A stretch of DNA of 51,474 nt, taken from a phage. The notes below the pieces were generated by a model. It worked only from the letters and a program-made list of their open reading frames with translations, had not been told where the DNA came from and ran no database searches. Location: sequence record PZ445410.1; one strand, given 5' to 3'. Positions 1-41,851 of the stretch are shown here, in pieces. Made by a program: the position numbers and the translations under genes. Every line of letters begins with the position of its first letter. Within the stretch, counting starts at the first letter, position 1.

Positions 1-362
1 TTGGAGATGCGCCAATTGGCGGCGGGAAGACGTCAATTCAGCAAATCATTGGCGAGGAGATCCACAAGGCAGCCGTTAAAATGAAAGCACCTGTAGGCTG
101 GCGTATTGACAAGAGCGCCTTTGCATATCAAGAAATCGTAACGCAGGGCAAAATTGAAGATATGCCGCTTGGCGCTTCAATCATCGGCATCAGAGACAAT
201 AACGGCGACTGGAATGATGTTTCATTCCCTGTCAAGCGGATCGAGTTGCACGAAGACCTGATTTGCATCCTGGCGCATCATGGCAGCTATAAGGACAAGC
301 CATTCGCCGCCGAGCTTAACATCAAGCGCGGAACTATGGTTAAGTGGAAAGTCAAAGTGTAA
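1..362 (+). CDS. hypothetical protein, 3' portion (5' end outside window or continuous with the ORF at 50946..51474)
   Basis: Frame of track ORF 81..362 is open back to nt 3; no convincing RBS before the ATG at 81; same phase as the ORF running off the window end. Confidence 0.4.
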   Translation, partial: GDAPIGGGKTSIQQIIGEEIHKAAVKMKAPVGWRIDKSAFAYQEIVTQGKIEDMPLGASIIGIRDNNGDWNDVSFPVKRIELHEDLICILAHHGSYKDKPFAAELNIKRGTMVKWKVKV

Positions 363-363
363 A

Positions 364-405
364 TAGCACGAATTGTTAAAACTCAAATGTGGGGCCAGGT
401 ATAAT
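364..405 (+). promoter_or_regulatory. TAGCAC-box promoter-like cassette (TAGCACGAATTGTTAAAAC, spacer, TATAAT at 400-405)
   Basis: Conserved 19-nt element directly after upstream stop; GGCC..GGCC inverted repeat flanks the TATAAT; gene start 31 nt downstream. Confidence 0.5.
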
Positions 406-435
406 GGCCTCACTTTCAACGAAGGAGATAAAACG

Positions 436-654
436 ATGTACATTAGCAAGAAGATGAAATGCGTTTCCGTTAATTATGGTTGTGCTGGAATGTTCAAGCC
501 TGGCGAAATCTATACGGCGCAAAAACTGAAATCATCAACCGGATCCTTTTACGTCAGCAACAGCAAAGGGCATCGCATGTTCCTGAACGGAGGTGAAGGC
601 ACTAAGGTTATGGCACACGCTATGGTAATTGCTGAATTTGAGGAAGTGAAATAA
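436..654 (+). CDS. hypothetical protein (73 aa)
   Basis: Internal ATG of track ORF 373..654 preceded by AAGGAGA RBS; lies downstream of the promoter-like cassette. Confidence 0.55.
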   Translation: MYISKKMKCVSVNYGCAGMFKPGEIYTAQKLKSSTGSFYVSNSKGHRMFLNGGEGTKVMAHAMVIAEFEEVK

Positions 655-1193
655 TGAAAAAATACGAATTTGAACTTTGGGGCAGCAAATACCATTTTTC
701 CACTAGCAAGCCGATTGTTATCGTTGACCTGGACGGAACGTTATCAGACGGAACGCATCGCTTACACCTTCTTCCGACAGAGGATTTACACCTTACAGAA
801 AGCTGGTCTGAGTTCAATAAGGCGGCTGTTGGCGATTCGCCGATTAAGAGCACTGTTGCAGTGGTTAACGGTTTGTGGATGTCAGGATTTGCCATCGTTA
901 TCCTGACCGGACGTAGCGATGAAGTGATGGAGGACACCTGCAAATGGATTAACGAAAACGGCATCAAGTACGATGCGTTAATCATGCGCCGCAAGGAAGA
1001 CAACCGCAAAGACACAATCATCAAAGAAGAAGTCTTGCGCGCTATCGGACTGGAAAACATTGTGTGCGCTTTTGATGATTCGCCGAACGTGGTTAAGCAC
1101 TTCCGAAGCCTGGGAATCACAACCTATCAGGTCACGGAATACGACAAGCCACACAATCATATCCAATCGCATGGCGTGGAGGAATTGAAATGA
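654..1193 (+). CDS. polynucleotide 3'-phosphatase, HAD superfamily (T4 Pnk C-terminal domain-like), stand-alone
   Basis: VIVDLDGTL (DxDGT HAD motif I), IVILTGRSD, RKDTIIKEEV, CAFDDSPNVV match the order and spacing of the T4 Pnk phosphatase domain motifs as I recall them. Confidence 0.7.
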   Translation: MKKYEFELWGSKYHFSTSKPIVIVDLDGTLSDGTHRLHLLPTEDLHLTESWSEFNKAAVGDSPIKSTVAVVNGLWMSGFAIVILTGRSDEVMEDTCKWINENGIKYDALIMRRKEDNRKDTIIKEEVLRAIGLENIVCAFDDSPNVVKHFRSLGITTYQVTEYDKPHNHIQSHGVEELK

Positions 1194-1351
1194 CCTGGAT
1201 TCTATTTGTGATTATCACAAGCTACAATTCAGCCGCCATTGAGTCTCGCGAGTTCCACGGTGAATCAAGATGTCAGGCCGCGAGAGAGCAAGTAATTTTG
1301 CATATGTCAGATAACGATAAAGAAGTTGAAGTATTCTGCATTCGTAAATAG
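1190..1351 (+). CDS. small hypothetical protein (53 aa), not in ORF track
   Basis: ATGA overlap with phosphatase stop, GGAGG RBS; stop TAG is the first triplet of the next TAGCAC-box. Confidence 0.35.
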   Translation: MTWILFVIITSYNSAAIESREFHGESRCQAAREQVILHMSDNDKEVEVFCIRK

Positions 1352-1391
1352 CACTTTTTGCAAAAACAGATTGTCGGGCTTGCGGTATAGT
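1349..1391 (+). promoter_or_regulatory. TAGCAC-box promoter-like cassette (variant TAGCACTTTTTGCAAAAAC; TATAGT at 1386-1391)
   Basis: Motif plus GGGCTT..AAGCCC inverted repeat around the -10-like hexamer; gene start at 1423. Confidence 0.45.
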
Positions 1392-1422
1392 AAGCCCATC
1401 GACAACAAACGAGGATTAAATC

Positions 1423-1686
1423 ATGGTTAATAAAGTTGAGTTTTTCAAAGCGGTAGACAAGATTGACGGCGCGCCAAGTTTCTTTGCTATCCATTCCATT
1501 GACGGCGAAGACGTTGAATACAACGTGATTAGTCGAGACGGTATATCAAAACTTAGTGACCTGGTGGGTTATATTGTGGCGAACGGGAAATGTGCATGGC
1601 CCGATTCACCACGAGAGCCGCGCCGCCGCGACATGCAAAATCCAGTTCTGCTTTACACGCTGGTAATTGAAGTAGTCAACAAATGA
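1423..1686 (+). CDS. hypothetical protein (87 aa)
   Basis: ORF with GAGGA RBS. Confidence 0.55.
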   Translation: MVNKVEFFKAVDKIDGAPSFFAIHSIDGEDVEYNVISRDGISKLSDLVGYIVANGKCAWPDSPREPRRRDMQNPVLLYTLVIEVVNK

Positions 1687-1868
1687 TTTGGTTACTTGTA
1701 TTTTTAGTAGTTTTCTTTTATATTTCAGGCTTATTCATCTTCCGCGCATTGGTTAAAGAGTGTGATTGCACTGATAAAGATCAGCCTCTTGTTCTGATGT
1801 TCTGGTTTGTGTGGTTTTGGGTGGCGCTTTACCAGATTGTACGGGATGAAAGCGGTTTTAAGTGGTGA
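1683..1868 (+). CDS. small membrane protein (61 aa)
   Basis: Hydrophobic N-terminus LLVFLVVFFYISGLFIF; ATGA-type overlap with upstream gene. Confidence 0.45.
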   Translation: MIWLLVFLVVFFYISGLFIFRALVKECDCTDKDQPLVLMFWFVWFWVALYQIVRDESGFKW

Positions 1869-1923
1869 TTCTTACTATAGCGCATTCACGCAGTGCGCTA
1901 TGTTGAGATAACAACAGGAGTTC

Positions 1924-2061
1924 ATGAAGATGCGAAACTTCGAAAAAATCGTAACCAAGAAAAAGCGCTACAGCTACGACGAGCACCGCGAGATGAATCA
2001 ACGCTATCGCAAGAAGCGCCAGCGCACAGGTAAACATTCAAGCAGATATGGAGAAAACTAA
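1924..2061 (+). CDS. small basic protein (45 aa), not in ORF track
   Basis: ACAGGAG RBS then ATG; Lys/Arg-rich; stop 1 nt before next gene. Confidence 0.3.
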   Translation: MKMRNFEKIVTKKKRYSYDEHREMNQRYRKKRQRTGKHSSRYGEN

Positions 2062-2062
2062 T

Positions 2063-2653
2063 ATGAAGCGAGACATTATCATCCTTAACGGACCGCCAGG
2101 AGTTGGCAAGGATACGCTTGCGGCATACTTAACTGGCCATCGTTACGCAGCCGTTAAAGCGTCGTTTAAGCAACCGATGTTTGATATTGCATTCTCCATG
2201 CTTGGCGTTTACCTATATGACGAGTTCATTGATCTGTATAACGACCGCGAGCAGAAAGAAAAGCCTCAAGCAATCTTGCAAGGCAATTCGCCTCGCAAGT
2301 TCATGATCTGGATTAGCGAAGAAGTCATGAAGCCAGCTTTTGGCGAGCAATATTTCGGAAATCGCATGGTTGAGCAAGTACACGAGATGTACAGAGATTT
2401 GGCTGTTGTAATTAGTGATGGCGGATTCCCTGAAGAAATCAAGCCGCTCGTTAAGGCAGGCCATGAAGTTCACATTTGCCGACTGCATCGCGAAGGATTC
2501 ACGTTTGATGGCGATTCGCGAAACTATATTGACCTGAGCGGATACCATCACCGAGTCAAGCATTACGACTTCACAATGATTGATGGCGAGCCAGAAAAGA
2601 CTGTTGACGAGATCATCAAAACGGTGCAGTGGAAACACACAAAGATTGAATAG
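2063..2653 (+). CDS. P-loop nucleotide kinase (T4 gp1 dNMP kinase-like)
   Basis: Walker A GPPGVGKDT near N-terminus; GKDT..A..Y.AVK pattern resembles dNMP kinase as I recall it; start chosen at internal ATG with GGAG RBS. Confidence 0.5.
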   Translation: MKRDIIILNGPPGVGKDTLAAYLTGHRYAAVKASFKQPMFDIAFSMLGVYLYDEFIDLYNDREQKEKPQAILQGNSPRKFMIWISEEVMKPAFGEQYFGNRMVEQVHEMYRDLAVVISDGGFPEEIKPLVKAGHEVHICRLHREGFTFDGDSRNYIDLSGYHHRVKHYDFTMIDGEPEKTVDEIIKTVQWKHTKIE

Positions 2654-2693
2654 CACGAATTGCTAAAAGCGGGGCACAATGCCTCGCTATAAT
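2651..2693 (+). promoter_or_regulatory. TAGCAC-box promoter-like cassette (variant TAGCACGAATTGCTAAAAG; TATAAT at 2688-2693)
   Basis: TAG of motif is the kinase stop codon. Confidence 0.45.
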
Positions 2694-2723
2694 ACAAACA
2701 CCAATCAACGAGAGGAAATCATC

Positions 2724-3125
2724 ATGGTAGAGTTAAACGACATTCGCGTTGGGACAAAATTTCGCGTAACCTGGGCAGATAAATATTGCGGAGTTAGCAA
2801 GGGCCAGATTGTTACTGTGGATAGTATTTATCGCGGATGCAGCAAAGACTTTCGGCGCCCACGCATCAAGAATGGCTATATCATTACTCGCCGTTTTGGG
2901 TTTGATCATTATTGCGTAGTGTCAACTCAAGGCGCTTTGATTGAGCTTAAGCGAATAAGCGATCATCGCGGCTGTCATGTTAAGACAATGAAAACACCAT
3001 TTCAGCGAGCGCGATACGATGCGCGACGGATGCGCCGACTTGCTCGAAATGCGATCAAGTTCAAAAAGCCTGGCAGTAATTTTTACAGAATGTACAAAGG
3101 GATTGCGCGAAATGCTGGGAAATAA
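2724..3125 (+). CDS. hypothetical protein (133 aa), basic C-terminus
   Basis: Internal ATG with GAGAGGAAA RBS. Confidence 0.55.
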   Translation: MVELNDIRVGTKFRVTWADKYCGVSKGQIVTVDSIYRGCSKDFRRPRIKNGYIITRRFGFDHYCVVSTQGALIELKRISDHRGCHVKTMKTPFQRARYDARRMRRLARNAIKFKKPGSNFYRMYKGIARNAGK

Positions 3126-3224
3126 CAACAACGCAACCAATCCAAAGCCGCCATTTGATTTTCATGAAATCATGATTGTGTTATTCTTGATTCTCTTAGT
3201 TGTTTATTCAGTGAGGGCCGCAAT

Positions 3225-3488
3225 ATGGTTTTTAATGCACTAAAACGAATCTTTAAACCTGAATACCGGATCGTTGCTTGCACAGAATGTAAGATTTATT
3301 ACCTGCAACGCCGCCGCGTTATTAGTGGGGATTGTGAATATCTAACTGATGATGCTTTCGGATTTTGGGCTATGGAGTTCAATAGCTACAGCGAAGCGCG
3401 TGAATACGCTAAAAAGTTGCACAAGTTCAGACCTTACAAGCTGCGTTTGCTGGTTGTCAAAAAATGCGATGTGTGGGATCACGAATGA
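3225..3488 (+). CDS. hypothetical protein (87 aa), Cys pairs suggest a zinc ribbon
   Basis: ORF; CTEC...C motif. Confidence 0.45.
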   Translation: MVFNALKRIFKPEYRIVACTECKIYYLQRRRVISGDCEYLTDDAFGFWAMEFNSYSEAREYAKKLHKFRPYKLRLLVVKKCDVWDHE

Positions 3489-4070: not shown

Positions 4071-4283
4071 ATGAAAATTCGAATCACCAGGGTTGACATT
4101 GACCGTAACGACGGAAGCATTACCCTTGAACAATGTGGATTCAAAGTTGGTGACATTGTAGAGGTTGACGGATTCTTTCGCGATGGTTCTTACTGCGTGT
4201 TAGCAATCCGCAACACGGAAGAAATTCGAATCGGTGATAACATCGGCGTAAACCATGACGAATGCGAGGTAGTAGAGGAATGA
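4071..4283 (+). CDS. hypothetical protein (70 aa)
   Basis: ORF downstream of motif. Confidence 0.5.
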   Translation: MKIRITRVDIDRNDGSITLEQCGFKVGDIVEVDGFFRDGSYCVLAIRNTEEIRIGDNIGVNHDECEVVEE

Positions 4284-9607: not shown

Positions 9608-10371
9608 TGAAAGTGAAGGGCGTCGTTAAACAATGGCGCTTTCCTGAAGCAAGCGAGCGGCAATTTAGCCGCTCAATTCAGGAGGCAATTAGAGATCTTG
9701 TGGTTCTCATGCGCAAGCGAACAAAAGCGATGAAGTTTGACGCAACAGATAATGAGATCAACATCGCAGAAGATGAAATTAACAGCCTGGCAACTGACCT
9801 TATAGCTGGCATTGTTTCAGCTCTTCCTGCAATCGCGTTGACCATTTATAAATTCAATGCGAAGCAGTTTATCAATGTTGCCAAGTCAACTGGCGGAAAG
9901 GATAACACGGCGGTAATTGTTTTGATCGCGGTTGGCGCTAACGCTAACGAGGATTGGTATCAGACGCTATACGGTCAATGGCACGGGCTTACAGAATCAT
10001 CGCTAAGGAAGTTATTCACAAATATTGTGTCTGACTGGTCAACAAACATTCGCAATGCAAACTTTCGCGGAAGCAATGATAAACAGGTTAATGATCTTGC
10101 AGAAAAGAGATTTGCTGTTTATAGCTCCTGGGGTAAAACTAGATCAGAAAACATTATCGGCGCGTGGAATAGTCGCCTTATGCGCCAGCGCCTTTATGAT
10201 GCTAAGGTGACTCATTATTTCTGGCATGGAATGTTAGATGATAGAGAGCGCTTGCAGCATGTGTTATGGGAAGGTAAAAGAATAGCGCTTGATGCAATTC
10301 ATGATTTCCCTGGTGAGCCGTGGGGTTGCCGTTGCTGGGCGATTCCAGACTGGAATAATAAAGGAGAGTAA
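9607..10371 (+). CDS. head morphogenesis / minor capsid protein
   Basis: 254 aa directly after portal, ATGA overlap; assignment by gene order. Confidence 0.5.
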   Translation: MKVKGVVKQWRFPEASERQFSRSIQEAIRDLVVLMRKRTKAMKFDATDNEINIAEDEINSLATDLIAGIVSALPAIALTIYKFNAKQFINVAKSTGGKDNTAVIVLIAVGANANEDWYQTLYGQWHGLTESSLRKLFTNIVSDWSTNIRNANFRGSNDKQVNDLAEKRFAVYSSWGKTRSENIIGAWNSRLMRQRLYDAKVTHYFWHGMLDDRERLQHVLWEGKRIALDAIHDFPGEPWGCRCWAIPDWNNKGE

Positions 10372-10374
10372 TTA

Positions 10375-11487
10375 ATGAAGTCAAAACAAAGATTTGATAG
10401 CGTCCAGGTTAAGGCGCATTTTGATGATAATGGCTTTTTAGTGGATCGCCCAATTGTGGCGCGAATTGGTTTGCAGGAGTACCGCACACCGTATGGAATC
10501 AGACGAGAGTTCCGACCAGCGTCAGAGGTGTTTAAGGCTGATTCGCTTGCTACGTTCGCAGGCAAGCCGATCACTATCGGTCACGTCACAGTGACGCCAG
10601 ACAATGCGGATCAGGTTGTTGTTGGTTCATGCGCTGGCGCTGGTGTTCCAAATGGGATTGGCGTTGAAGTTCCGTTAAGCATTTACTCAAAGAGAGCAAT
10701 TGAGAGCGCAAAAAAGAAAGACACGGCGGAAATTTCAGTCGGTTACACATCGGTTGATATTGATAAGCCAGGATGGGGTAATAATAAAACTGGTGATTAC
10801 TTGTTTGAGGAAGACCTTAAGGAAGACTGGAAGCCTGATTCTCCTGATTGGGTTAAATTTGACGCCATTCAGACGAATATTCGTGTTAATCACATTGCGC
10901 TCGTCTTTCGTGGTCGTGCTGGAATTGCCAAATTAAATCTTGATAGCGAACAGGATTTTCCGTATAGTGACGAGGTTTCAAATGACAAAGGAGATGAGGA
11001 AATGACAGTAAAAATCAAACTTGATGGCGCGGTAGAATTTGATGTTCCAAAGGCCGTTGCTGATCATATTGAGGCGCTAAAGGCTGACGCAAAAGCTGCA
11101 ACCGAAAAAGCTGATGGCCTTGAGGCAGAGCGCGACGCCCTGAAAACTAAAGTCGATGGCATTCCGGCGCAGATTGCAGAAGCTGTTAAGAAGGCGAAGA
11201 CTGACGCAGAAGAACACGCCAAGCTGGTTGCAGATGCAACTGAAATTGGCATCAAGTGTGACGGCTTGGACGCTAAAGCGATCAAGGTTGCTTACGTCAA
11301 AGAAGTCACTGGCGCTGATATTTCAGAAAAAGCCGATGCATATATTGAAACAGCTTTTGACCTTGCGAAGCAGTCTGATAAAATGGCGGCGCAGCGTAAA
11401 TCTGTTAAGGGCGATTCTTTCGAGTCTGGCAAGAGTGAAAAAACCGACTCCCTTGATCCGACTGCGCGTTTGAAAAAACTTAAATAA
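10375..11487 (+). CDS. putative prohead protease and/or scaffolding protein
   Basis: 370 aa; C-terminal coiled-coil-like Ala/Lys/Glu-rich region; position before capsid genes. Confidence 0.4.
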   Translation: MKSKQRFDSVQVKAHFDDNGFLVDRPIVARIGLQEYRTPYGIRREFRPASEVFKADSLATFAGKPITIGHVTVTPDNADQVVVGSCAGAGVPNGIGVEVPLSIYSKRAIESAKKKDTAEISVGYTSVDIDKPGWGNNKTGDYLFEEDLKEDWKPDSPDWVKFDAIQTNIRVNHIALVFRGRAGIAKLNLDSEQDFPYSDEVSNDKGDEEMTVKIKLDGAVEFDVPKAVADHIEALKADAKAATEKADGLEAERDALKTKVDGIPAQIAEAVKKAKTDAEEHAKLVADATEIGIKCDGLDAKAIKVAYVKEVTGADISEKADAYIETAFDLAKQSDKMAAQRKSVKGDSFESGKSEKTDSLDPTARLKKLK

Positions 11488-40732: not shown

Positions 40733-41851
40733 TTGATGAAGCAAATCAAAATCACAGATGAACAATTTATCAATGAGCGCAAGCAGGGAAAGACATATAA
40801 GCAGATCGCTAATGAGTATGGCATGAACGTTCGCAGCATTGAGCGCCGCGCGGCACGATTAGCAAAGCAAGGTAAAGTTACAACCATCGGATCGCCTGGT
40901 TTTGGTGTTACTGGAGAATCAAAGCTAATTGATAAAGATGGCAATGTGGTTATGACATGGATTAAGACAAGTAAGGACCGCGAACAGCTAGAAGCATTAA
41001 TGCAGGCCGCTATTGATGCATTTAGCGAAGAAGTCCCTCGACTTGATCCGCAGCCAGAATCACAAAAGGATTATAGCGAGACGTTATCACTGTATCCGAT
41101 CTTTGATATGCACTTGGGCGCAATGGCGCATAAGCATGAATGCGGCGAGAACTGGGATACAGCAACAGCAGAGCGCGTAATGAATAATTTCATTGATTAT
41201 TCCATCCAGTGCGCGCCGGATAGCGAAAATGCTGTTTTGCTGATTGGTGGTGACATGCTGCATAGTGACGGCCTGGAAGCGGTGACACCTGCAAGCGGTC
41301 ACGTATTGGATCAAGATAGTCGATACGCAAAACTTGTTTATGTTGCCATCCGGTCAGTGCGTAGAGCAATTACAAAGCTGTTATCAAAACACAAAAACGT
41401 CGAGATTCAGATCATTGAAGGCAACCACGACCAAAGCGGCATGATCTGGTTGCGCGCAGCAATGGCGGCAGCATATGAGAATGAGCCACGAGTGCATGTT
41501 GATGTGTCTCCGCGAGTAGTTCATCACACACAATATGGCAAAACATTCCTGGCATACCATCACGGGCACACTATCCGCAAGCCTGAAACATTGCTCATGA
41601 TGTGCGCAGCAGACTGGCGCGAAGACTTCGGCAATTCAAAAATGATGTATGCTCACGTAGGGCATTGGCATCATCAAACAGTAACCGAAACAAGCCTGGG
41701 AATTGTTGAAGTGCATAGCACTATGGCGGCAAAAGATGCATATGCGGCGCGCGGTGGATGGCGTTCTCGCCGCCGTGCGGCTGTTATTGTTTATGATAAA
41801 GAATACGGAGAAGTGGGGCGATTTATGCATTATCCAGAAATTGCTGGTTGA
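40733..41851 (+). CDS. HTH domain fused to calcineurin-like metallophosphoesterase
   Basis: N-terminal HTH KTYKQIANEYGMNVRSIERR; phosphoesterase motifs DMH, GGDMLHSDG, EGNHD, HHGH. Confidence 0.55.
   Translation: MMKQIKITDEQFINERKQGKTYKQIANEYGMNVRSIERRAARLAKQGKVTTIGSPGFGVTGESKLIDKDGNVVMTWIKTSKDREQLEALMQAAIDAFSEEVPRLDPQPESQKDYSETLSLYPIFDMHLGAMAHKHECGENWDTATAERVMNNFIDYSIQCAPDSENAVLLIGGDMLHSDGLEAVTPASGHVLDQDSRYAKLVYVAIRSVRRAITKLLSKHKNVEIQIIEGNHDQSGMIWLRAAMAAAYENEPRVHVDVSPRVVHHTQYGKTFLAYHHGHTIRKPETLLMMCAADWREDFGNSKMMYAHVGHWHHQTVTETSLGIVEVHSTMAAKDAYAARGGWRSRRRAAVIVYDKEYGEVGRFMHYPEIAG

Follow-up and report, generated by a model that had tools for sequence, protein, structure and literature searches.

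Two genes in a phage sequence of 51,474 nucleotides (PZ445410.1; the whole stretch is called the window here) probably form a conserved two-enzyme module of deoxynucleotide metabolism in T1-like phages, and not a system of RNA repair. One gene (PHO) encodes a stand-alone phosphatase of the type found in T4 polynucleotide kinase-phosphatase (Pnkp), and the other (DNK) encodes a predicted deoxynucleoside monophosphate (dNMP) kinase. The gene pair has already been annotated and partly characterised and is not a new type of system. The features of the window discussed below are the following:

654..1193, plus strand: PHO, stand-alone Pnkp-type HAD phosphatase (ORF of 179 aa with a match to PF25109)
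1190-1351, 1423-1686, 1683-1868 and 1924-2061, plus strand: four small ORFs between PHO and DNK (matches only to PHROGs of unknown function)
2063..2653, plus strand: DNK, predicted P-loop deoxynucleoside monophosphate kinase (196 aa; P-loop GPPGVGKDT; PHROG 139)
40733..41851, plus strand: protein with the PHROG label 'DNA repair exonuclease' (PHROG 704, E 1.4e-150)

PHO has a good ribosome-binding site (GAGGAAG), and its start codon, ATG, shares bases with the stop codon of the ORF before it. The protein matches the Pfam family HAD_PNKP (PF25109) over profile positions 3-140 of 143 with 80 bits (E 2.4e-22; cut-off 27.6 bits), and its sequence matches in the PDB include Pnkp1 (4xrp, E 8e-9) and T4 Pnkp (1ltq/5uj0). 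All seven residues that are essential to the T4 Pnkp phosphatase can be found in PHO in the same order in HMMER alignments (PHO/T4 Pnkp: D25/D165, D27/D167, R36/R176, R87/R213, D120/D254, D141/D277, D142/D278), and within the DLDGT motif D25 is the predicted nucleophile and D27 the predicted acid/base. The model of PHO is poor at residues 28-64, a region that likely sets specificity. The ORF contains neither a P-loop nor a polynucleotide 5'-kinase domain of the AAA_33 type, and NCBIfam returned nothing above its cut-offs for PHO or DNK. These alignments support the placement of PHO in the HAD subfamily of T4 Pnkp, without the kinase domain. An earlier note on this DNA had read the T4 Pnkp phosphatase motifs, in order, and a missing kinase domain from the letters of this ORF; the PF25109 match and the seven residues bear out the former, the absence of a P-loop the latter, and the profile search places the protein in HAD_PNKP and not in an unrelated HAD subfamily.

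For DNK, a start at 2048, annotated as an alternative, would extend the product to 201 aa (2048-2653), an ORF that contains 2063-2653. The ATG at 2063 is the likelier start: it is preceded by GGAG at a distance of 9 nt, the ORF before it ends with its stop codon at 2059-2061, and 196 aa is the length called for most homologues. DNK matches PHROG 139 ('deoxynucleoside monophosphate kinase') with E 5.8e-50, and the fold that it matches best is that of T4 gp1 (hhalign probability 80.8%, E 1.3e-5), consistent with a P-loop NMP-kinase fold. A direct sequence and profile search of the PDB gave generic P-loop matches to AAA+ ATPases alone, so that fold comparison was required. The Pnk-type domain AAA_33 is not significant in DNK by Pfam, which returned a single sub-threshold match to AAA_18; the fused Pnkp relatives P0302, P0327 and P0380 carry AAA_33 with E 1e-16 to 1e-18. 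Hydroxyl kinases such as Pnk use an acidic residue after the second strand as general base, and in our reading of the DNK family alignment no invariant acidic residue follows this strand. The window DNK is letter-identical over 201 aa to the DNK of phage KarlJaspers (Bas06), which is toxic when co-expressed with KomABC of the Kongming defence system (bioRxiv 10.1101/2024.12.20.629578), and is 46% identical to R1DNK of phage Rao1. R1DNK phosphorylates dAMP, dGMP, dCMP and dTMP in vitro, dADP is raised in vivo, and the K15A mutant loses the ability to trigger Kongming toxicity (bioRxiv 10.1101/2024.12.20.629578). By sequence, DNK is a dNMP kinase and not a polynucleotide kinase, with dNMP phosphorylation known from the R1DNK orthologue; the resemblance to dNMP kinases suggested earlier agrees with both PHROG 139 and the T4 gp1 fold match. 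The laboratory fitness of Rao1 is not measurably reduced by deletion of dnk (bioRxiv 10.1101/2024.12.20.629578), and the benefit of salvage may thus be conditional.

The two genes are regularly found together. Of 36 viral loci with a PHO of ~48% identity or more, 26 have DNK after PHO, and in 17 of those 26 the genes abut or overlap by 4 nt. Such abutting or overlapping pairs occur in many other T1-like phages and in some RNA-polymerase-encoding phages of ~40-45 kb; adjacency extends over Drexlerviridae (Hanrivervirus, Webervirus), the T1-like phage Rao1 and Autographiviridae (Gajwadongvirus ECBP5), VAC2 shows this arrangement too, and adjacency is kept down to about 50% identity, in many cases with a 4-nt overlap of stop and start codons. 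In Rao1, for instance, PHO is gp57, 58% identical to the window PHO and directly upstream of DNK. Two metagenomic proteins (P0256 and P0259, mutually 37% identical) are PHO-linker-DNK fusions. P0256 is present on 3 contigs, and searches of viral_contigs and metagenome_contigs found none that encode it; the fusions are therefore supported by two sequences that diverge from each other, plus this number of contigs. In the remaining 10 loci, a protein with a PF18909 dATP/dGTP diphosphohydrolase domain (E 8.7e-32) occupies the position after PHO. DNK and the PF18909 protein are never both present after PHO in these loci, and P0258 is a PHO-PF18909 fusion.

Gene order and fusions together show a functional link between PHO and DNK, and comparative genomics identifies the two as a real conserved unit of T1-like phages, with the 870-nt gap in the window as a local trait of this phage lineage. 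The two activities had been called unlinked in the earlier note, which is misleading, as the genes abut, overlap or are fused elsewhere. The small ORFs in the gap vary among close relatives (two in phiE31-2, four in Bas07), those of Bas07 match the window ones in size only partly, and the ORFs at 1190..2061 are variable accessory genes outside the conserved pair. A scan of positions 1-3300 for sigma-70 promoters and terminators yielded fewer sites than shuffled sequence did and was uninformative on operon structure. In other Drexlerviridae, the PHROG 704 exonuclease gene lies immediately upstream of PHO and DNK; its counterpart in the window is about 11 kb from the pair, assuming a circularly permuted genome. 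The order exonuclease, PHO, DNK is found in Rao1, VAC2 and ECBP5 and was also noted in PMC13164509. In ECBP5 and other RNA-polymerase-encoding phages, the pair directly follows genes for an exonuclease, endonuclease VII and a DNA repair exonuclease, and more distant DNKs neighbour exonucleases, endonuclease VII, thymidylate synthase and ribonucleotide reductase. Where distant homologues of PHO occur in enterobacterial prophage-like loci, their neighbours are a lambda-type phosphatase, a coiled-coil protein and type I restriction-modification genes, which gave no functional lead.

The adjacency or fusion to DNK, together with a dNTP pyrophosphohydrolase of PF18909 in the kinase slot of sister phages, points to deoxynucleotide metabolism, and nucleotide salvage, which the earlier note had offered as a fallback, is the best-supported role. 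A role in nucleotide supply was suggested independently in PMC13164509. DNK would act as a broad-specificity kinase that converts dNMPs (released, for instance, by DNA breakdown) to dNDPs in an ATP-dependent reaction, and host nucleoside diphosphate kinase would then turn the dNDPs into dNTPs for phage replication. For PHO we predict Mg-dependent phosphomonoesterase activity of the HAD type, via an acyl-phosphate intermediate at Asp25, and infer that the enzyme acts on deoxynucleotide-level substrates of the DNK pathway. Since PHO is far more similar to Pnkp phosphatase domains than to the T5 phosphatase Dmp, its most likely reaction would be the removal of 3'-phosphates from DNA breakdown products. 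Candidate substrates are 3'-dNMP, deoxynucleoside 3',5'-bisphosphates and 3'-phosphorylated oligonucleotides, and the dephosphorylated products would enter the stream of exonuclease, DNK and polymerase. No nuclease yielding 3'-phosphates was identified in the window. We also propose, tentatively, that PHO is an obligate partner of a nucleotide enzyme (dNMP kinase or dNTP pyrophosphohydrolase) and defines an undescribed phage pathway. This partnership may be a 3'-to-5' phosphate switch in salvage (3'-dNMP or pdNp to 5'-dNMP to dNDP), or it may be a selective dNMP valve that excludes dIMP and methylated or damaged dNMPs and modulates Kongming-like immunity.

A less likely alternative is that PHO is a 5'-deoxynucleotidase like T5 Dmp, which experiments have verified as a 5'-dNMP phosphatase and as a factor against Kongming. 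PHO would then convert 5'-dNMPs, or a subset such as dAMP and dIMP, to nucleosides and form a valve on the dNMP pool together with DNK; it could also blunt nucleotide-sensing immunity, for example Kongming triggered by the phage's own DNK. T5 Dmp aligns to the PHO family with an hhalign probability of 85% (E 6e-6), with the motifs DxDGT-x5-HR, AC..D, T[GA]R, D...K and DD lined up and Dmp D22 opposite PHO D25, and it falls in PHROG 415 like PHO (E 3.6e-57). Because the seven catalytic residues are apparently common to T5 Dmp as well, they do not distinguish 3' from 5' specificity. Dmps and DNKs are also found together in phage genomes, and a neighbouring or fused dNTP pyrophosphohydrolase suits a 5'-nucleotidase no less well, as it produces 5'-dNMPs and the two would form a sequential pathway. 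Conversely, PHO scores 3.7-8.7 bits against the Dmps of T5 and VPG01 in phmmer (about 4-9), as compared with 85-96 bits for the phosphatase domains within fused proteins of the Pnkp type, jackhmmer started from T5 Dmp recovered no T1-like PHO, and a 5'-nucleotidase translationally coupled or fused to a dNMP kinase would compete with it for one substrate. Rao1, despite its 58%-identical PHO, is restricted by Kongming, escapes through dnk mutations only and shows a 2-3 fold rise in dAMP during infection (bioRxiv 10.1101/2024.12.20.629578). This last argument is weak, since Bas26 is Kongming-sensitive despite a functional Dmp. A role of PHO against cyclic-nucleotide defence signals was also considered and dropped, as no context supported it. 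A study of retron Eco2 has no bearing on PHO, since T4 PNK figures there just as a commercial reagent.

The headline of the earlier note, a split end-healing module, is very unlikely to hold. In such a module, PHO would heal 3'-phosphate or 2',3'-cyclic phosphate ends, the P-loop protein would phosphorylate the 5'-OH of broken tRNA or DNA, and a host ligase would seal the breaks, countering anticodon or other defence nucleases. PHO is genuinely a Pnkp-type phosphatase, its tight pairing or fusion with a kinase mirrors the logic of Pnkp, and ECBP5 has PHO, DNK and an ATP-dependent DNA ligase in this order with the genes abutting. However, the kinase lacks a significant AAA_33 domain and belongs to a characterised dNMP kinase family, in which identical and orthologous proteins have been tested and act as dNMP kinases. 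The ECBP5 ligase sits within a cluster of DNA-metabolism genes with nucleases upstream, and its adjacency may be coincidental. Pfam searches of ten larger ORFs of the window, chosen from outside the genes for head, tail and packaging, gave no RNA or DNA ligase, tblastn and phmmer with a phage ATP-dependent DNA ligase as query had no match in the window, and no ligase is listed for the close relative Bas07 in its curated annotation, in line with the earlier reading that a ligase is missing. Escherichia coli RtcB ligates 5'-OH ends to ends that carry a 3'-phosphate or cyclic phosphate, so a 3'-phosphatase on its own would work against this repair and not assist it. A dNTP pyrophosphohydrolase, which takes the place of DNK after PHO in some loci, has no role in end healing. 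That PHO and DNK lie near each other in a gene-dense early region without any functional relation, paired by an accident of shared ancestry, would fit the four unrelated small ORFs and 870 nt between them here, the many distant PHO homologues with no DNK within 10 kb and the distant DNKs without PHO, but is most improbable given adjacency that persists to about 50% identity in more than one family, the 4-nt stop/start overlap in many loci and the two divergent fusion proteins.

The practical value of reading PHO and DNK as a deoxynucleotide module is corrective. Many phage records name a kinase-less PHO 'polynucleotide kinase' or '3'-phosphatase, 5'-polynucleotide kinase', labels that invite the wrong inference of tRNA repair by these phages. 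The coupling rule, in which a phosphatase is joined to a kinase or to a pyrophosphohydrolase with fused forms of both pairings, poses a concrete biochemical question. Kongming uses the phage dNMP kinase to make its dITP signal, which makes the kinase a known immune trigger, and an enzyme translationally coupled to DNK could therefore affect both the nucleotide economy of the phage and its visibility to nucleotide-sensing defences.

Among known systems, the closest to PHO are the C-terminal 3'-phosphatase of T4 Pnkp (pseT) and Capnocytophaga Pnkp1. PHO lacks the AAA_33 polynucleotide kinase domain that is fused at the N-terminus of T4 Pnkp, and the partner RNA ligase was not found in its genome by the Pfam, DNA-ligase and Bas07 comparisons given above. 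PHO also begins with a beta-hairpin of ~18 residues at its N-terminus, the segment that connects its motifs I and II is different, and its partner kinase comes from another family and is located downstream rather than upstream. DNK is closest to the phage dNMP kinases T4 gp1 (PDB 1DEK), T5 Dnk, R1DNK and KarlJaspers DNK (the Kongming triggers), with which it shares PHROG 139 and a GKDT P-loop. It is ~16% identical to T4 gp1 over the structural alignment and shorter (196 versus 241 aa), and the T1-like dnk is coupled to a phosphatase gene, whereas T4 gene 1 is not. T5 Dmp is a distant homologue of PHO with aligned catalytic motifs and the same PHROG, and both occur in phages with a DNK; Dmp, in contrast, is 244 aa long with a C-terminal extension, and its gene is remote from dnk, in the first-step-transfer DNA that is the first to enter the host cell. 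Host-DNA salvage in T7 relies on the gp3 endonuclease, the gp6 exonuclease and the nucleotide kinase gp1.7, which is not a P-loop kinase, and T7 is not known to have a Pnkp-type phosphatase. The proposed PHO-DNK pathway would resemble T7 salvage in its logic, which combines nucleases with a phage dNMP kinase.

The phosphatase PHO and the P-loop deoxynucleoside monophosphate (dNMP) kinase DNK form one unit. The window contains their genes and a homologue of an exonuclease gene that precedes the pair in other phages:

654-1193, + strand: PHO, putative stand-alone Pnkp-type HAD phosphatase, 179 aa; GAGGAAG upstream, ATG overlapping the stop of the preceding ORF
2063-2653, + strand: DNK, dNMP kinase, 196 aa
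40733-41851: homologue of the "DNA repair exonuclease" gene

Gene pairing was surveyed in 80 viral loci with PHO relatives, searched by profiles of both PHO and DNK. In all 36 loci whose PHO is at least about 48% identical to that of the window (L004-L038, L041), the next functional gene encodes either DNK or a protein with the PF18909 dATP/dGTP-diphosphohydrolase N-terminal domain (E 8.7e-32); the slot after PHO lies at about 10,000-11,100 in most of them. DNK follows PHO in 26 loci, abutting it or overlapping it by 4 nt in 17 and starting about 0.6-1.6 kb past its end, as in the window, in the remaining 9. The PF18909 protein follows in 10, in every case with its gene touching or overlapping the end of PHO, and shares a locus with DNK in none of the 36. 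Among 1.84 billion cluster representatives, two proteins are PHO–linker–DNK fusions (P0256, 403 aa, three contigs; P0259, 461 aa; 37% identical to each other) and one is a PHO–PF18909 fusion (P0258). The earlier note had called the two activities unlinked, which is misleading, since pairs elsewhere abut, overlap or are fused. Thus, the 870 nt between them in the window reflect small, variable accessory ORFs that this lineage has gained inside a pair that is tight in other phages.

Rao1 (gp56-gp57-gp58) and, with a 4-nt overlap, Webervirus VAC2 have a "DNA repair exonuclease" gene, PHO and DNK in that order, an arrangement mentioned in passing in PMC13164509. In ECBP5 (Autographiviridae), this order continues into an ATP-dependent DNA ligase (L085:3414-5519), the genes abutting or overlapping, with genes for an exonuclease, endonuclease VII and the DNA repair exonuclease immediately before PHO. 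In no other locus examined does a ligase neighbour the pair.

The PHO–DNK interval is a hotspot of small accessory ORFs in Hanrivervirus (window 1190-2061; L001:4422-4915; L003:46454-47284), with four in the window, two in phiE31-2 and four in Bas07 that correspond partially to those of the window. Judged by sequence alone, the ORF at 1683-1868 has the look of a membrane protein, and several small ORFs near the pair (81-654, 2679-3125, 4071-4283) look like small beta-rich domains; some of the latter are called 'HNH endonuclease' in related records, a label that seems doubtful. In enterobacterial prophage-like contigs (L051-L083), genes for a lambda-type calcineurin-like phosphatase and a coiled-coil protein of 420 aa precede that for a 168-aa PHO homologue (38-40% identity), which adjoins type I restriction-modification-like genes in seven loci and has no DNK within 10 kb.

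By its sequence, PHO belongs to the Pnkp-type HAD family. It matches Pfam HAD_PNKP at 80 bits (cut-off 27.6 bits) over nearly the entire profile, in the PDB only T4 Pnkp and Pnkp1 from the RNA-repair complex of Capnocytophaga match it significantly, and HMMER alignments recover, with spacing kept, all seven residues essential to the T4 3'-phosphatase (D25, D27, R36, R87, D120, D141 and D142). The ORF holds no P-loop. Thus, the earlier observation of Pnk-like HAD motifs without a kinase domain stands, and the ORF did not fall into an unrelated HAD subfamily, the outcome named as its refutation. Catalysis would almost certainly follow the standard HAD mechanism through an Asp25 acyl-phosphate intermediate. 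Stand-alone forms are the rule, not the exception: those of 140-180 aa dominate the best 150 of 8,778 representatives, and no more than a handful of these 150 are fused Pnkps of about 300 aa.

Close relatives of PHO (P0001, P0003, P0010, P0027) have variable C-terminal add-ons: an insert of about 27 aa (CxxC...CxxC) with repeated GV(D/E)ELK on both flanks, a tail of about 58 aa, or, in P0027, both. The tail of some homologues resembles a small beta-rich domain. In the window (1170-1351), PHO ends at 179 aa, and a 53-aa ORF overlapping it by 4 nt comes next.

DNK probably starts at ATG 2063, as first proposed, because a GGAG precedes this codon by 9 nt, the stop codon of the upstream ORF (1924-2061) is at 2059-2061, and 196 aa is the length called for most homologues; the annotated start of a 201-aa form, ATG 2048, has no Shine-Dalgarno sequence. 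Pfam and PDB sequence searches recognised the P-loop alone. DNK matches PHROG 139 "deoxynucleoside monophosphate kinase" (E 5.8e-50) and aligns with T4 gp1 by hhalign (80.8% probability). The translation of 2048-2653 (201 aa) is letter-identical to QXV82329.1 of Escherichia phage KarlJaspers (Bas06, MZ501090), printed in a supplementary table of bioRxiv 10.1101/2024.12.20.629578, so the window very probably comes from KarlJaspers or from a phage nearly identical to it. Phage DNKs of this family trigger KomABC (Kongming) immunity. R1DNK (Rao1 gp58, 46% identical to window DNK) phosphorylates dAMP, dGMP, dCMP and dTMP in an ATP-dependent manner and increases dADP in vivo, the K15A variant of R1DNK no longer triggers Kongming toxicity, and the DNKs of KarlJaspers and Drexlerviridae phage VAC2 also trigger toxicity (bioRxiv 10.1101/2024.12.20.629578). 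Given these experiments, the window kinase is an experimentally supported dNMP kinase, as its look had suggested, and not a polynucleotide kinase; the AAA_33 kinase domain of genuine fused Pnkp relatives of PHO is absent from it. The DNK homologue of Kuravirus MN03 (L091:3189-4082) is extended by about 110 aa at its N-terminus and has an exonuclease gene directly downstream.

Positions 1-6 kb of the window are 91-96% identical to T1-like Hanrivervirus (Drexlerviridae, Tempevirinae), whose records already name PHO ("polynucleotide kinase", "kinase-phosphatase") and DNK ("ATP-binding protein", "dNMP kinase", "P-loop NTPase"). Annotations of the pair are widespread and often misleading. PHROG 415 is labelled 'polynucleotide kinase' despite having no kinase domain, and the label spreads into many phage annotations.

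Both alternative partners of PHO act on free deoxynucleotides, and more distant DNKs have nucleases, thymidylate synthase and ribonucleotide reductase as neighbours. The pair therefore most likely works on deoxynucleotide pools, in salvage of DNA breakdown products; of the roles weighed in the earlier note, nucleotide salvage gains from this and broken-RNA repair loses. The sequence of PHO favours removal of the 3'-phosphate from 3'-dNMPs, pdNp or 3'-phosphorylated DNA ends, all of which are classical T4 Pnkp substrates (PMC6714547), because PHO scores 85-96 bits against phosphatase domains from genuine Pnkp proteins and 4-9 bits against T5 Dmp, an experimentally verified 5'-dNMP phosphatase that counteracts Kongming. 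PHO might instead be a 5'-dNMP phosphatase like T5 Dmp (L086:124-858), a detectable distant homologue that aligns with it by hhalign (85%) with all catalytic motifs in register and is a full-length member of the same PHROG 415. As the motifs are common to both, the conserved residues do not decide between 3' and 5'. Rao1, whose PHO (58% identical to window PHO) lies next to its DNK, is restricted by Kongming and shows increased dAMP during infection (bioRxiv 10.1101/2024.12.20.629578), which argues mildly against strong 5'-dAMP phosphatase activity. As Bas26 shows, however, a phage with a functional Dmp can still be sensitive to Kongming.

The reported lack of a ligase was confirmed: none was found by Pfam in ten larger ORFs outside the head, tail and packaging genes, none is listed in the curated Bas07 annotation, and a phage DNA ligase used as query had no match in the window. 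The locus was also considered as a Pnkp and rejected on kinase domain and ligase. With a dNMP kinase, no ligase found and partners acting on free deoxynucleotides, the split end-healing module once suggested is not supported; the locus resembles T4-type Pnkp in the family membership of its phosphatase but differs in that neither the Pnkp kinase domain nor a ligase was found. The kinase is already known and tested as a dNMP kinase, and the co-occurrence of the pair is in print; what may be new is that PHO is coupled strictly to one or the other of DNK and a dNTP pyrophosphohydrolase, and that both kinds of fusion exist. The coupling and fusions are not a new kind of system; they sharpen a testable question about the phosphatase.
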